A stretch of 64,000 nucleotides of DNA. It comes from a virus. Lineage: Duplodnaviria > Heunggongvirae > Uroviricota > Caudoviricetes. Positions within the stretch are counted from its first letter, which is position 1; each line of letters begins with the position of its first letter. A program made the translations under genes and the position numbers. Shown here one piece after another: positions 4,651 through 25,420 of the stretch. Location of the stretch: positions 26,050 through 90,049 of the IMG/VR virus record IMGVR_UViG_3300006139_000005. One strand, written 5' to 3'. The notes beneath the pieces are model-generated. The model worked only from the letters and a program-made list of their open reading frames with translations, searched no databases and had not been told where the DNA came from.

Positions 4651-4678
4651 TTAGCAACGAACAAAATCAAAATGTAAT
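4651..4678 (+). promoter_or_regulatory. TTAGCA-N16-TGTAAT promoter module (first copy, fused with ACGAACAAAATCA motif)
   Basis: same architecture as the downstream modules. Confidence 0.45.
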
Positions 4679-4746
4679 AGGTAATAGGCGGGCCGGTGGA
4701 CATCACCACCACCGGCCCCACGATAAAAGAAAAGGGGTTACATACT

Positions 4747-5106
4747 ATGACAATCAACAATGCCAAACTGAAAGCCTGCATCAAGCTCTCCAGCAAAGTC
4801 ACCGTTTACGTGCCCGCCACGAACGGCGTAGCCGATGCCACCGACAACACGGAACAGGTCAAAAAGACCGCCGCGCTCCTGGCTGATCTCTTCGGCGGCT
4901 CCACCTCCACCGCCGCCCTGGGCTACTGGCTCTCTCCCGTGGCCGGCCTGGTTGCTGAGAATACAACCGTAGTTTTCGCCTATGCCAGCGATGAGGACTT
5001 GCAGAACGGGATCGCCGCCGTGGTTGACCATTGCGAGGCGCTGAAAAATGAGATGGGGCAGGAGGCCGTAGCCCTGGAAATCAACGGCGAAATGTACTTC
5101 ATCTAA
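4747..5106 (+). CDS. hypothetical protein
   Basis: ATG 4747 with AAGGGG RBS; 119 aa. Confidence 0.5.
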   Translation: MTINNAKLKACIKLSSKVTVYVPATNGVADATDNTEQVKKTAALLADLFGGSTSTAALGYWLSPVAGLVAENTTVVFAYASDEDLQNGIAAVVDHCEALKNEMGQEAVALEINGEMYFI

Positions 5107-5173
5107 CAGAACGAGGACGGCGGGCGGATGCTGCAAGGTATCCGCCCGCTGGAATATGGAAGGAGTGGAACAC

Positions 5174-5350
5174 ATGAAAAAATTTGTGCTGGACTATGCC
5201 GCCGATGTTATGGAACGGACGGCGGGAAATCCTCTGATGAAAGAGGAACACAAGGCCGAAAAATTCCGTAACGTGGCGCGGGCGCTAAGTCTCTACAATC
5301 AAGAGATCATCACAACGGACGAGGCAATCAAACTGATTCTGGAGGCATAA
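5174..5350 (+). CDS. small hypothetical protein
   Basis: AAGGAG RBS, 58 aa, followed by a hairpin terminator. Confidence 0.4.
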   Translation: MKKFVLDYAADVMERTAGNPLMKEEHKAEKFRNVARALSLYNQEIITTDEAIKLILEA

Positions 5351-5356
5351 AGACGG

Positions 5357-5385
5357 AGGCCGGGGAAATTCCCCCGGCCTTTTGC
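5357..5385 (+). terminator. rho-independent terminator
   Basis: AGGCCGGGG-aaatt-CCCCCGGCCT followed by TTTT. Confidence 0.6.
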
Positions 5386-5410
5386 TATTTCAAAAAGTTT
5401 TTTGGAACGG

Positions 5411-5438
5411 TTAGCAGAACGGGGAAAAGTCTTGTAAT
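5411..5438 (+). promoter_or_regulatory. TTAGCA-N16-TGTAAT promoter module
   Basis: TGGTTAGCA..cTGTAATAAGAATAGG; RBS and ATG within about 45 nt. Confidence 0.5.
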
Positions 5439-5485
5439 AAGAATAGGGGGCAGCGCCCACAACAAAATTTTTGGAGGTATGGAAC

Positions 5486-22445: not shown

Positions 22446-22844
22446 ATGGAGGACGGTATGGAGCAAAGAACTTGCAATATTATCATGTGCTGTAAAGGTC
22501 ATTGTCAGTTGGAGGGAGCGGGCGAAACACCTATGGAGGCTATCGCTGCATACATGAGCCATGAGTGTGATTGCCCCAAAGAGGATTATAAAGGTGCGCT
22601 GATGGAGTCTATTTTGCGGGAGGCGCTATTTGACTATATTGCTACTGCGGATAAGCCTGGTTTTGATCTGCGTCAGCTTTTTTATCAATACGCCCTTCGG
22701 GAACCTACTTTGTCGGAGCGTATTTGTACCATGTTCCAGCTGGTGAAGGTGCGAGATGATTCTTTTGGATGCACCAATGGATTTTCTGAGAAACAGCTTA
22801 CTCAAAGTGAAAAAGATTTGGGTGGGAAGGTAACGATCGGTTAG
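22446..22844 (+). CDS. hypothetical Cys/His-rich protein
   Basis: alternative start 22458; TAG stop lies inside the GGTTAGCAA motif. Confidence 0.5.
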   Translation: MEDGMEQRTCNIIMCCKGHCQLEGAGETPMEAIAAYMSHECDCPKEDYKGALMESILREALFDYIATADKPGFDLRQLFYQYALREPTLSERICTMFQLVKVRDDSFGCTNGFSEKQLTQSEKDLGGKVTIG

Positions 22845-22868
22845 CAACATTCGTCTCCCGTCTGTAAT
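22841..22868 (+). promoter_or_regulatory. TTAGCA-N16-TGTAAT promoter module
   Basis: motif match. Confidence 0.5.
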
Positions 22869-22899
22869 TAAAATAGAAACGATTTTGGAGGTGTTAAAT

Positions 22900-23757
22900 T
22901 TGAAGCGTTTCAGGATTACGACGGGAGACGGTCATACCTTGCGGCTCTGTTATCCTTCACTTGAAACAGCCAAAGAGCGGTATCCGGATGCTGAAATCGT
23001 CGAGGATAATGACCAATCCCATGTGGCCTATATTCAGCGGATGATCGAAGCGGCGGCAGAGTGCCAGACTGTGGAGCGAAACGGATCTATCGTCTATCTG
23101 TTACGGTTTGAGACTTCAGTTGGAACTTGCTTTGCTATGCTCTCTAAAGATAGCAATGATGGTGTGTGGTATGACCTATGTAAGTACCAGCTATGGAAAA
23201 CAGGTGCGGTTGTCGTACCTTTTGGGTGGAATCTCTCAAATCCCGTTGATTTTTGTAAACGGTTTTTATTCCAAAAGGCGGAGTACATTGTGCTTTCCAG
23301 TGGACGGAATCATAAGAAGCCAAAAGAACTGTGTGGCATCAGGAAATTCGCGTCTGTTTCTTTTGGGAAATGTAAATGCCAACTCTTTCTAAAAGGTGAT
23401 GATCTCTATATCAATCATCATGATTATTTTAGTCGATCATGGAGGCCCCCGGATGATGATATTGGGAAGCCGACAACATATTACTTGAAAAAGTATTTCG
23501 GGATCATTAAGCCAGAGAAGTTTTGCTATGCGGATTGCTGGGGCGACATAGTGCTACAAAACAAAGCGTGGTTACAGATCAACAACTTTATCCCTATGGT
23601 AAAAATTCTGAACGCTTCGCAAATTGCCCAAGTAGTTTGGGTTTTGATTCGAGAGTATTATAAGTGGCCGTCTTATGAACGCAATATGGATTGGGAGCGC
23701 TTTCTGGAGGACATAGCAAATGTAACCAAAAGCTATCTTGATCGGGAGGTAACATAA
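22900..23757 (+). CDS. hypothetical protein (TTG start)
   Basis: GGAGGTG 8 nt before TTG 22900; 285 aa. Confidence 0.5.
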   Translation: MKRFRITTGDGHTLRLCYPSLETAKERYPDAEIVEDNDQSHVAYIQRMIEAAAECQTVERNGSIVYLLRFETSVGTCFAMLSKDSNDGVWYDLCKYQLWKTGAVVVPFGWNLSNPVDFCKRFLFQKAEYIVLSSGRNHKKPKELCGIRKFASVSFGKCKCQLFLKGDDLYINHHDYFSRSWRPPDDDIGKPTTYYLKKYFGIIKPEKFCYADCWGDIVLQNKAWLQINNFIPMVKILNASQIAQVVWVLIREYYKWPSYERNMDWERFLEDIANVTKSYLDREVT

Positions 23758-23760
23758 CAG

Positions 23761-24843
23761 ATGGGCAAAAGAGTTGAGTATAGAGACACCTTTGATTTTC
23801 GCTTATTCCCAGAGTATACCTATACAAGAGCGCAGAATAGGCGATTGCGCTTATTCCAGGGGAGGGTTGAACACTGGCGAGCAGCAATCAATTATGCGGA
23901 CTCCTTTAACTATCCAAATGAAATAAACCTGCTGTATATGATTGGATATAAACCCCAGATGAAAGCGTATGTAGAAAAAACTGTGAGCAATGTTGTGGTA
24001 CTGTGTGCAGATGTTCCTCCAGAATTTTTAGCCGCATATGACGCATATTGGGGGTTTGTCAAACAATACCGGGGAACAGGATATGTGAACCAAGATGGCG
24101 TATTCTCCCCCGCATTTTTTGCAGAACGTGAAAAAGAGGAAGCATATCGTGGCACTGGTATACTACCGGATGAACTGTATCGGCGCAACGATGAGCAGGC
24201 AGCTATCATTAGTGCTTACCAGCGTATCACAGAAGAATCAGAAAAATATTTTTCGCATTATCTCATTATAAGTAAATCAATCCCTGAATGTAGTATTTCT
24301 CATGACGAGCTGGATTGGCTTATTCAGGAATACTTTCCTTTTGGCCGAGAACAGTGTGGCATTGGTGAAAAAGCGTATAGGTCTTTGCGCAAAATCGAAG
24401 AGGCTTTAAGGGCTGGATTGAATCGGGCTGATACTGCAAAACTGTTAGACCTTCCTAACGGAGTAGATAGTTATACCGCTTGTCAAAATGGAATCAAGCA
24501 GTGTCAAATGAATCTGAGCGTAGCTATGCAAAATGACGGATTGGTGGATCTGGTTCAGCTAATGGAGGATATGAAAAAACCGCCATATGGATGGGACGAT
24601 GATCCTCATGCGGCTTATTGCCTTGGGTATGCCATATGTGATTATTTGGATAATACATGGATTTGGGACGAGATTTATTGTTTTCAATCTCATAGCGAAA
24701 CGCTCGTTAGTGTTCTACGTAATGTTCTCAGAGGAAGTCTGGGACGGAGACATTCTTTTGTGTTGGTGTCAGAGGTCGGTCAGTATCTCTCCAGTCGGTT
24801 TGCGTATATGTTTGGAATTAAGGGAAGTGAGTATTGTCTTTGA
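23761..24843 (+). CDS. hypothetical protein
   Basis: 360 aa continuous ORF. Confidence 0.55.
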   Translation: MGKRVEYRDTFDFRLFPEYTYTRAQNRRLRLFQGRVEHWRAAINYADSFNYPNEINLLYMIGYKPQMKAYVEKTVSNVVVLCADVPPEFLAAYDAYWGFVKQYRGTGYVNQDGVFSPAFFAEREKEEAYRGTGILPDELYRRNDEQAAIISAYQRITEESEKYFSHYLIISKSIPECSISHDELDWLIQEYFPFGREQCGIGEKAYRSLRKIEEALRAGLNRADTAKLLDLPNGVDSYTACQNGIKQCQMNLSVAMQNDGLVDLVQLMEDMKKPPYGWDDDPHAAYCLGYAICDYLDNTWIWDEIYCFQSHSETLVSVLRNVLRGSLGRRHSFVLVSEVGQYLSSRFAYMFGIKGSEYCL

Positions 24844-24864
24844 GACGCTACAGATGTAAGGATA

Positions 24865-25359
24865 TTGGAACTCTATAAGGATGGGGCGTCTGAACGCAAG
24901 ATCGCCGCTGAACTTGGTACAATATCCAATGTTGCAATACACAAACGTATTGTAAAAATGCAGACTTTTTCAAAAGAAGATATGCCGTTTTGCAACATGG
25001 CTCTTCAGATTTGTTCAAAAATTGAGAAAACTACACGATGGCCTGTAGCTGTAATTGATGAACATTTGCACGAAGTCTTATGTGGCACCTTTGACTCCGA
25101 AAAACATATCTGTATCCCAGTGTTTGGTAGGACTAACGTTTGTGCTGAGCTTTCTTATTTTACAGCAGAAAAATGTAAAGCATTGAAGAAAGTATTGGAG
25201 ACAATTAACACTTACGTTCCCGCTTTGATACAACAAAAGTATGGCACTGATATAGATATGGCGGAGTTGGAACAGGCTTGTACCACATCAGCTTCTGGAT
25301 GGTTATGGAGCAGTGAAACTTTTTGGGAATGTGTTGAGCACTATATAAAAAAAAGATAG
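24865..25359 (+). CDS. HTH protein with N-terminal sigma-70 region-4-like motif
   Basis: ASERKIAAELGTISNVAIHKRIVKM parallels the C-terminal HTH of ORF 3836-4630; TTG start with poor RBS; same frame as the upstream gene across a single TGA. Confidence 0.45.
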   Translation: MELYKDGASERKIAAELGTISNVAIHKRIVKMQTFSKEDMPFCNMALQICSKIEKTTRWPVAVIDEHLHEVLCGTFDSEKHICIPVFGRTNVCAELSYFTAEKCKALKKVLETINTYVPALIQQKYGTDIDMAELEQACTTSASGWLWSSETFWECVEHYIKKR

Positions 25360-25392
25360 CTGGTATTGGAAGTCTGAAAAACGTAAAGATGG

Positions 25393-25420
25393 TTAGCAAA
25401 TCCGCCTCCCCTTCTGTAAT
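25393..25420 (+). promoter_or_regulatory. TTAGCA-N16-TGTAAT promoter module (last copy)
   Basis: motif match; 70-nt leader before the large gene. Confidence 0.5.

Follow-up and report, generated by a model that had tools for sequence, protein, structure and literature searches.

A sigma-like phage protein and 27 repeated modules that are probably its promoters in a high-turnover array of accessory genes

The window analyzed here is a stretch of 64,000 nt from a tailed phage (Caudoviricetes; IMG/VR record IMGVR_UViG_3300006139_000005, positions 26,050-90,049), and all coordinates are those of this window. Between positions 4649 and 25429 it contains an array of small genes that is interspersed with 27 copies of a promoter-like module. 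Upstream of the array lies the gene 3836-4630 (plus strand), which encodes a sigma-like protein of 264 aa and ends 19 nt before the first module. The 27 modules are probably the cognate promoters of this protein, which resembles the sigma factors of the extracytoplasmic function (ECF) family. A first-pass annotation of the same DNA had described the modules as sigma-70-type promoters that double as recombination boundaries and had listed the gene 3836-4630 merely as a possible partner in reporter assays. Its promoter and terminator reading was upheld, while the sigma-70 and the recombination readings were not, and the gene turned out to encode a sigma-like protein that is kept in front of such arrays.

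The modules follow the pattern tGGTTAGCAAat-N12-cTGTAAT-wAnAAT-AGG, which occurs 27 times at 4649-25429, always on the plus strand, with less than one occurrence expected by chance. The sequence GGTTAGCAA of the first box was found 23 times, on the plus strand only (0.35 expected). The pattern TTAGCA-N16-TRTAAT, with at most one mismatch, gave 25 matches, all on the plus strand between 4651 and 25393 (0.76 expected), and two extra copies, 18448 and 19438 (17-nt spacer), raise the total to 27. These counts confirmed the copy number of the first-pass annotation. The alignment of the modules consists of a T-rich stretch, t-GGTTAGCA-A-at, 12-13 free bases, c-TGTAAT, wAnAAT and A-G-G; wAnAAT-AGG thus forms a third conserved block after the second box. 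GGTTAGC is invariant in 27/27 modules, and the T-G-T of the second box is present in 26-27/27. The copies are not "near-identical", as had been stated: their mean pairwise identity is 57% over the 45-nt core, and the longest exact tract common to two modules is usually 8-12 nt, with a maximum of 25 nt. The module copies have boxes in common, not sequence. Past 25429 there are no further modules within the window. GGTTAGCAA is present at 32880 and 39187 without a second box, and a supposed copy of the core at 28587 on the other strand is a chance match with one mismatch.

Two types of leader were observed. In 13 short-leader modules the sequence leads directly into AGGAGGTG-N5-7-ATG, while the other 14 have an A/C-rich leader of 31-78 nt, often with AG(A)GGCCACAAAA..., and a Shine-Dalgarno sequence (SD) of its own. 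The claim that the module is always 6-12 nt upstream of a start codon is therefore right for the short-leader copies and wrong for the rest. A strong terminator, defined as a hairpin with a free energy of -18 kcal/mol or lower plus a T-run, was found just upstream of, or around, the first box in 18 modules (-18 to -27 kcal/mol), in agreement with the earlier estimate of about 18 hairpin-terminated cassettes. The hairpin encloses the first box in the modules 10257, 18448 and 19438, and the core overlaps stop codons at 16663 and 22841, both as described before; 12020 is indeed the only copy with a perfect TATAAT as second box. The open reading frame 6680-7060 had been mis-called because module 6753 falls inside it, and the real gene start is 6826. 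Judged from their sequence, the modules resemble promoters that have an SD built in or close by, and most units appear to end in intrinsic terminators.

The key base of a -10 hexamer of the sigma-70 type is its second base, the A at -11. At this position 26 of the 27 modules have a G (TGTAAT), and a sigma-70 scan accepted only one module, the TATAAT copy at 12020, so that the description as ordinary sigma-70-type promoters of the form TTAGCA-N16-TGTAAT did not hold. A promoter for the host sigma-A would require A at -11, T as the last base of the hexamer and a -35 element near TTGACA at a distance of 16-18 bp, and the modules do not fit this description. The wAnAAT block, in turn, is 22 bp away from TTAGCA and has no TG extension. 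Textbook promoters are nevertheless used in the same genome. A perfect one, TTGACA-N17-TATAAT (12/12), precedes the tyrosine recombinase gene on the minus strand (2698-2726), and TTGACA-N17-TAAAAT, which would drive the sigma-like gene, is located in front of it on the plus strand (3692-3720), is overlapped by ACGAATAAAATCATTG (3679-3694) and is conserved in the close relatives L111 and L113. Two more are located in the replication-gene region, a perfect TTGACA-17-TATAAT at about 44441-44469 and TTGACA-17-TAGTAT at ~30289-30320. Because the genome uses such promoters, the module boxes represent a different specificity and not drift.

The protein encoded by 3836-4630 is composed of an N-terminal Gp111-like part, a sigma2-like three-helix domain (~60-170), a linker and a four-helix sigma4-like helix-turn-helix (HTH) domain (197-260). 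An AlphaFold model (predicted local distance difference test, pLDDT, 77) begins with helices at the N-terminus, continues with a domain built from three long helices, and places a disordered linker before the C-terminal domain of four helices. The HTH at the C-terminus (...YTEREIAQALDNKISNVAVHKRIAKIRADL) aligns in register with region 4.2 of RpoE and SigW, and the protein has the HTH of regions 4.1-4.2 by which sigma4 domains are recognized. A profile of the central domain alone retrieved 80 clusters from 1.84 billion proteins. Many of these relatives have about 190 aa with the domain at the N-terminus, i.e., the size and layout of ECF sigma factors, and in 42 remote relatives Pfam recognized Sigma70_r4_2 in 15, Sigma70_ECF in 10 and Sigma70_r2 in one. 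One remote relative of the family matches DUF1492, and one homologue had been labelled "sigma24 family" by JGI. When the family profile was compared with solved structures, the best matches were sigmaF (3.3e-7), the ECF sigma CnrH (5.2e-5) and SigB (4e-4), and in weak second stretches the "DEFVNEAWLKL" helix of the family was aligned on region 2.2. Based on the fold, on the profile matches to solved sigma factors and on the Pfam matches of remote relatives, it is likely that the product of 3836-4630 is a divergent ECF-like sigma factor, and binding to core polymerase is predicted.

When IMG/VR was scanned for the exact pattern of the full module, only single chance matches appeared, because the bases adjacent to the spacer differ in relatives. 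Relatives were thus collected from IMG/VR as protein-anchored loci instead of by module pattern. Close relatives, with 71-83% identity of the methylase-helicase protein encoded just past the array, have 12-21 modules per 20-30 kb, always on the plus strand, and GGTTAGCAA is present about 100-130 nt 5' of the methylase-helicase start in nearly all relatives that cover this position. More distant phages, found via the DUF932 gene, have the same architecture with other boxes in the same register, and AGG follows in all of them. Their box sets are GGTAAGCAA...GGTAGA-TATAAT, (G)GTTAGCAAAT...GGTAGT-TAAtAT, GGTtaAtttTT...GGTAGg-TATAAT and GGTTAATTT...(A/G)TTAGT-TGTAAT. A homologue of the sigma-like protein (37-58% identity) is encoded upstream of the array in each lineage in which the locus extends far enough; the gene thus keeps its place before the array in five further lineages, which have different modules. 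The first recognized module is within about 100 nt of the homologue in the loci L031, L079, L082 and L072, and at least 550 nt past it in L075 and L065.

Protein and boxes change together. The sigma4-like recognition helix changes with the first box (S[NG][VP]AVHKRI with GGTTAGCAA, NRAAVHKRID with GGTAAGCAA, SEPA[VI]CKRLKK with GGTtaAtttTT), and the last sigma2-like helix changes with the second box (VYNAA[KR]A with cTGTAA, [VA]YR[SA]AKDAI with GGTAG, VYRA[CS]LYSI with TTAGT). In L058/L065 the HTH type of the GGTTAATTT group is joined to the sigma2-like type of the GGTAG group, and the module boxes are combined in exactly the same way. This domain-by-domain match, a correlation over about six lineages, is what is predicted for a two-domain sigma factor that reads a -35 and a -10 element. 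Most lineages have retained the GTA core of the second box, for which the GGTTAATTT group has TTAGT, and L057 has kept the GTA box without a TAnAAT block. The CGTA-type -10 elements of ECF promoters resemble this GTA core.

The following course of events is proposed. On infection or prophage induction, the host sigma-A RNA polymerase would initiate at 3692-3720, and the phage sigma factor would be made. It would join the host core polymerase, its sigma4-like HTH would read GGTTAGCAA as -35 element, and its sigma2-like domain would read (c)TGTAAT, 16 bp downstream, as -10 element. Transcription would start at the purine about 7 nt further on, i.e., after the AAT of AATAGG, and GGTTAGCAA would thereby be placed at about -36 to -28. 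Thirteen transcripts would then begin nearly at the SD AGGAGGTG, and 14 would begin with the A/C-rich leader, namely with AGrGG(C)CACAA. wAnAAT makes less sense as -10 element, because transcription would then begin within the conserved SD or past it. The hairpin/T-run terminators, several of which enclose a promoter box, would insulate most units. A single switch could thus turn on about 46 small accessory genes (the MazF pair, SprT-like, DarA_C, DUF932, SLOG and others) and the methylase-helicase gene. We infer the binding to core polymerase, the identity of the -10 box, the start site and the timing.

The cargo of the array was analyzed with Pfam. It includes MazF (7075-7407) with a small upstream partner, an SprT-like protein (10757-11272), a protein with a DarA_C domain (12878-13237), a DUF932 protein (16746-17525) and a YspA-type SLOG protein (17844-18197), while the other array genes have no assigned family. 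MazF, SprT-like, DUF932 and SLOG had already been named in the first-pass annotation, and its description of the cargo as small, mostly unknown proteins was likewise borne out by the sequence; the gene with the DarA_C domain was added here. The first conserved core gene past the array (25498-28545, plus strand) encodes an N6-methylase plus SNF2/ResIII helicase protein of 1015 aa, and its architecture presumably recalls that of P1 DarB. DarA_C together with this DarB-like protein suggests that the array has an anti-restriction theme.

The gene content of the array varies strongly among relatives, and the flux of genes that had been suspected is therefore real. The closest relative (IMG/VR 3300006201_000003) has 94-95% identity over window positions 1-17463 and 93% from 25496 on, and the 8 kb at 17463-25496 are almost wholly different. 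It contains one additional terminator-module-gene unit after the gene 7529-7723. The window retains the last 19 nt of the extra gene, so this difference is a deletion in the window lineage, by microhomology, outside a module. In addition, another gene replaces 7840-8169 in the closest relative; homology breaks off at the SD/start codon of one module and resumes at the start codon that follows the next module, and the replacement ends in the common string AATAGGAGGTGCTACAAA. When 14 relatives were compared, near-universal array genes proved to be few (11306, 14375, 15831, 16746, 19620 and 20594); many have a patchy distribution, the order of some differs, and seven occur in the window alone. 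A 720-bp insertion in the closest relative (L002 1969-2689) was also observed, near the 3' end of the DUF932 gene and exactly where high identity stops (17463/17464).

Homology ends were counted at the gene junctions. They number 4.1 per module junction versus 2.5 per plain gene junction, but per kb there are 28.6 in module zones versus 49 at plain junctions, and modules are thus not enriched. The breakpoints cluster at all gene junctions, with or without a module. This test and the shortness of the common tracts give no support for modules as dedicated exchange sites; at most, a passive contribution to exchange is possible, of the kind discussed for the promoter early stem-loops (PeSLs) of T4-type phages. 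Of the two resolved events, one ends inside modules, as in PeSL-type exchange, and the other does not. The proposal that the module core is also a boundary for recombination or cassette exchange is weak.

Several points weigh against the assignment of the modules to the sigma-like protein. The protein itself does not reach the Pfam thresholds (Sigma70_r4_2, E = 0.089), and only its HTH was aligned when it was compared with RpoE or SigW by pairwise hhalign. The co-variation is drawn from about six lineages, in which common descent is a partial confounder. The third block, wAnAAT, looks like a -10 element of sigma-A and is a near-perfect TATAAT in some lineages, so that host sigma-A might take part. 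Furthermore, a cascade delays expression, which is odd for anti-defence genes. An alternative that we regard as unlikely is that the protein is a LuxR/GerE-type activator that binds GGTTAGCAA centred near -38 or -40 while host sigma-A reads wAnAAT (class-II-type), or else a repressor with many operators. The repressor version has a parallel in mycobacteriophage L5, whose gp71 binds to stoperators, and the boxes of the modules are asymmetric, in one orientation and intergenic, as they presumably are in L5. It also fits that the C-terminal domain is equally close to the HTHs of LuxR, GerE and AsnC, and that the sigma-A-like block is TATAAT in the lineages L065, L082 and L072. An activator that binds only the first box would leave unexplained, however, why the central, sigma2-like domain co-varies with the second box. 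Remote family members match Sigma70_ECF and Sigma70_r2, L057 has the GTA box and no TAnAAT block, and a repressor that is expressed first and acts on the next 27 promoters would make little regulatory sense.

That the modules are ordinary early promoters of host sigma-A, conserved only as strong promoters fused to a fixed SD, is quite improbable. The early regions of SPO1 and T4-type phages are built in this way (PMC6873191, PMC2839356), the boxes match TTGACA and TATAAT at 4/6 and 5/6 positions with a 16-bp spacing, and the T-rich region upstream is UP-element-like. The deviation from the consensus, however, is invariant and not scattered (GG before TTAGCA in 27/27, G at -11 in 26/27), perfect sigma-A promoters are used elsewhere in the genome, and the boxes of related phages differ in a way that tracks changes in the adjacent protein. 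Highly improbable is the idea that the modules are mainly recombination sites, integron-like or PeSL-like, perhaps acted upon by the neighboring tyrosine recombinase, with the promoter role being secondary. The mosaic gene content, the replacement that ends in AATAGGAGGTGCTACAAA, the hairpins around the core in some copies and the recombinase gene that adjoins the sigma gene in distant lineages and isolate genomes would agree with it. Yet breakpoints per kb are no commoner at module junctions than at plain ones, the resolved deletion junction is outside a module, hairpins surround the core in only 3-5 copies, and every unit has its own promoter, which integron cassettes do not have. Exact tracts of 8-12 nt with a free spacer are the signature of boxes that are recognized by a protein, and the recombinase of 273 aa has only a generic Phage_integrase domain. 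A long shot, finally, is an extension in which the array serves as a phage bank of cassettes whose transcription code is private: the sigma/promoter pairs of related Oscillospiraceae prophages would have diversified into five or more specificities that are orthogonal to one another, and the modules would also be substrates for cassette capture or exchange, via PeSL-type mini-circles or the neighboring recombinase. It would make the array an integron-like platform for gene capture, in which captured genes receive a promoter that only their own phage reads.

The individual modules, all on the plus strand, are as follows. Module 1 (4649-4687) begins 19 nt past the stop codon of the sigma gene, has a short leader, carries ACGAACAAAATCAAAA in its spacer and has no strong terminator. 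Short leaders are also present in module 6 (7790-7828; terminator 7750-7777), module 8 (9138-9176; hairpin 9092-9136), module 11 (10708-10746; terminator 10666-10695), which would drive the SprT-like gene, module 12 (11257-11295), which overlaps the end of that gene and has no terminator, module 13 (11678-11716; terminator 11625-11669), module 14 (12018-12056; no terminator), which has the sole TATAAT second box, module 15 (12829-12867; terminator 12782-12814), which would drive the DarA_C gene, module 16 (13277-13315; terminator 13240-13267), which has the variant TTAGCG, module 20 (16198-16236; no strong terminator), module 22 (17795-17833; terminator 17755-17783), which would drive the SLOG gene, and module 23 (18446-18484), which has its first box in the loop of hairpin 18432-18470. 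Long leaders are present in module 2 (5409-5447; terminator hairpin 5355-5382), module 3 (6247-6285; leader AGAGGCCACAA...; no strong hairpin), module 4 (6751-6789; terminator 6678-6719), which would drive 6826-7060 and MazF, module 5 (7449-7487; terminator 7413-7434), module 7 (8219-8257; terminator 8175-8200; leader of 78 nt), module 9 (9740-9778; weak hairpin only), module 17 (14054-14092; terminator 14014-14035), module 18 (14656-14694; terminator 14602-14629), module 19 (15311-15349; terminator 15268-15305), module 21 (16661-16699), where the TAG of the first box is the stop codon of 16247-16666 and which would drive the DUF932 gene, and module 24 (19021-19059; terminator 18973-18996), a TGAAAT variant. 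The first box of module 10 (10255-10293) is in the loop of terminator hairpin 10245-10277, and that of module 25 (19436-19475; 17-nt spacer) in the loop of hairpin 19429-19454; the latter module would drive the longest unit, seven genes at 19491-22844. In module 26 (22839-22877) the first-box TAG is the stop codon of 22458-22844, and its unit would be 22900-25359. Module 27 (25391-25429), the last one, has a CCTCCC...GGGAGG hairpin plus T-run around its second box and would drive the methylase-helicase gene. The last array gene (24865-25359, plus strand, 164 aa) was not found in the 14 relatives compared. The first 34 residues of its product are 49% identical to the sigma4.2 HTH of the 3836-4630 protein, and as a speculation it could compete for the first box.

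On the other side of the sigma gene, the minus strand encodes the tyrosine recombinase (1872-2693, Phage_integrase domain), the true start of which is probably the second Met near 2636. The gene stays beside the sigma gene and divergent from it in distant lineages (L084, L087, L072, L063-L070, L114-L121) and in bacterial isolate assemblies, so the attachment site is probably not between the two. Further left are a small SprT/M78-like metallopeptidase reading frame (weak matches) and an HNH endonuclease gene (785-1156 and 1153-1515, both on the minus strand). The divergent promoters 2698-2726 and 3692-3720 are twins with the common -10/start context TA(T/A)AATAG(A/G)GTATA, and each is followed by an ACGAAT..AAAT leader motif (inverted repeats I1 and I2). 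Between them is a GC-rich non-coding stretch of about 650 nt (2990-3620) with degenerate direct repeats (GAGGCGGGGCGGGGTTC three to four times, ATGGCAGGCGGGGCCG twice), CT-rich repeats and runs of G10; its role may be that of attP, an origin or a packaging site. The sequence ACGAAYAAAATCAWTG occurs 17 times with at most three mismatches (three expected), exactly at 3679-3694, 3805-3820, 31325-31340 and 44428-44443 and in looser form 13 times. At two canonical sigma-A promoters (3692 and 44441) its copies overlap the -35 element; others are located just 5' of the SD in the sigma gene and the recombinase gene, and one is in the module 1 spacer. Possible roles are those of an operator or of a leader element.

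Motifs that resemble hammerhead ribozymes (stem I - CUGAUGA - stem II - GAAA - stem III - UC) were seen in relatives and not in the window. They are located upstream of the sigma homologue in L082 (~1640-1720), L072 (~2470-2560), L075 and L058, and elsewhere at L060 11442, L072 11700 and L082 11609. Compensatory changes between lineages were noted by eye in all three stems, and a strict hammerhead pattern matched in 20 loci, only at positions other than the element upstream of the sigma homologue. For the elements near the sigma gene in distant lineages the idea came from a hand fold, Rfam reported nothing, and the idea was dropped.

The window encodes a primase-helicase (49941-51914), a DnaE-type polymerase (51966-55577), an anaerobic ribonucleotide reductase (57350-59662) and the methylase-helicase mentioned above, and it is part of a large phage of an anaerobic Firmicute. 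Megablast found no match for the array in GenBank phages, and a protein search with DnaE found only distant relatives, large Clostridioides and Bacillus siphoviruses with 36-42% identity. Many relatives are present in IMG/VR, on contigs of up to about 140 kb. Because homologous loci occur in isolate assemblies of Oscillospiraceae (Dysosmobacter segnis BX15, at about 266-279 kb of the 388-kb contig NZ_JACOQI010000002.1, and Hominicoprocola fusiformis CLA-AA-H269, contig JAJEPY010000001.1), the phage is probably temperate and its host is probably a gut member of this family. In the literature that could be searched, neither this phage group nor the protein family of 3836-4630 was found to be described. 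Three tRNA genes of 114-118 nt (33525-33638, 33852-33966 and 33972-34089), found by Rfam and missed by ARAGORN, have 48-55 nt in place of the 7-nt anticodon loop, i.e., short anticodon-loop insertions. CACTAACAGCAAGG is conserved in the inserts of the first and the third and is absent from the second. CTAACAGCAA has two further copies outside the tRNA genes (32817 and 33473), and CGCTAACAGCAA is repeated three to five times in relatives.

The array resembles several known systems in part. PeSLs contain sigma-70-consensus early promoters that are read by the host holoenzyme (PMC2839356, PMC4122927), and their recombination and the formation of mini-circles have been shown by experiment (Arbiol et al. 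2010, PMC2839356; Comeau et al. 2014, PMC4122927). Like PeSLs, the modules are intergenic composites of about 100 bp with an AT/T-rich stretch, -35/-10 boxes, a G-run/C-run stem-loop terminator upstream of, or around, a promoter box, an SD and a start codon, and many copies recur in a hyperplastic region whose small orphan genes vary from one close relative to another. The composite of promoter, stem-loop terminator and SD/ATG is thus present, while the sigma-70-consensus promoter is not. Unlike PeSLs, the modules have non-consensus boxes paired with a phage sigma-like gene and are not preferred by breakpoints, and the phage has a Gram-positive host and is probably temperate.

SPO1 uses a sigma cascade, in which the phage sigmas gp28 and gp33-34 redirect the host core polymerase to private promoters. 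Its host-takeover module packs 26 small early genes into about 12 kb and has numerous strong promoters as well as strong ribosome-binding sites (PMC6873191). In SPO1 it is host sigma-A that drives the small-gene cluster, the phage sigmas being used for middle and late genes, whereas here the cluster itself is the apparent regulon of a phage sigma. The earlier wording "rather than an ordinary early region" went too far, since the layout is that of known hyperplastic early regions, i.e., the T4-type PeSL regions and the SPO1 host-takeover module. We take gp36 of phiEco32 to be a member of the ECF family. The sigma factor of phiEco32 and phage 7-11 is first made from host-type promoters, and its own promoters are well conserved and were found by repeat searching (PMC4331800). 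They are few ("low copy numbers") and belong to middle and late genes of lytic podoviruses; here, in contrast, 27 putative promoters, most of them with a terminator, are present in 20 kb of a large Firmicute phage. The mechanism proposed for the array is a phage sigma cascade and in this respect has counterparts in SPO1 gp28 and in the sigma of phiEco32 and 7-11.

An ECF promoter such as that of B. subtilis sigmaW has the form TGAAAC-N16-CGTA. Bacterial ECF sigmas and the phage system have in common a two-domain layout (sigma2 and sigma4, with a putative sigma2 domain in the phage protein) and a bipartite promoter with a long conserved -35 element and a spacer of 16-17 bp (structures in PMC6372665). 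They also share a short GTA/CGT-type -10 element without the A at -11 of sigma-70, and ECF specificity is very stringent. The -35 element here, in contrast, is GGTTAGCAA and not of the AAC type, the phage protein has an N-terminal extension of 60 aa and an insertion in the sigma2-like domain, and no anti-sigma partner was identified. RinA, ArpU, LtrC and DUF1492, late activators of Firmicute phages, are small sigma-like regulators with a sigma4-type HTH; they act at one late promoter upstream of packaging genes, in contrast to 27 promoters upstream of accessory genes. An integron has, like the array, a tyrosine recombinase gene beside one-directional small cassettes and a repeated boundary motif with GTTAG, but integron cassettes are promoterless and end in attC, while every unit here has a promoter. 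We rejected the integron reading because the core GTTAGCA departs from GTTRRRY, no junctions are located at the core, no attC-like imperfect palindromes were found, and the recombinase is generic. Likenesses of the reverse complement of GGTTAGCAA to the T4 MotA box, and of the module boxes to the sigmaB, sigmaH or SPO1 late promoter consensus, were dropped as unsupported.

What sets the array apart is the combination: a high-turnover region of small genes is the probable regulon of an ECF-like sigma of the phage's own, its promoter is present in 27 copies, and the sigma/promoter pair has diversified among relatives. A repeated "promoter" with a consistent deviation from the consensus should thus prompt a search for its own factor next door. 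The motif is also a simple means of annotating the early/accessory region, and hence candidate anti-defence genes, in uncultured relatives. If the proposed pairing is true, the related lineages would represent natural matched sigma/promoter pairs, which could supply orthogonal parts for gene expression in anaerobic Firmicutes and a system for studying how sigma2 and sigma4 read DNA. A 40-nt signal and one small protein would then govern about 20 kb of rapidly changing genes with accessory and probably anti-restriction roles. The large prophages under such control form a widespread family in gut Oscillospiraceae, bacteria for which hardly any genetic tools exist.

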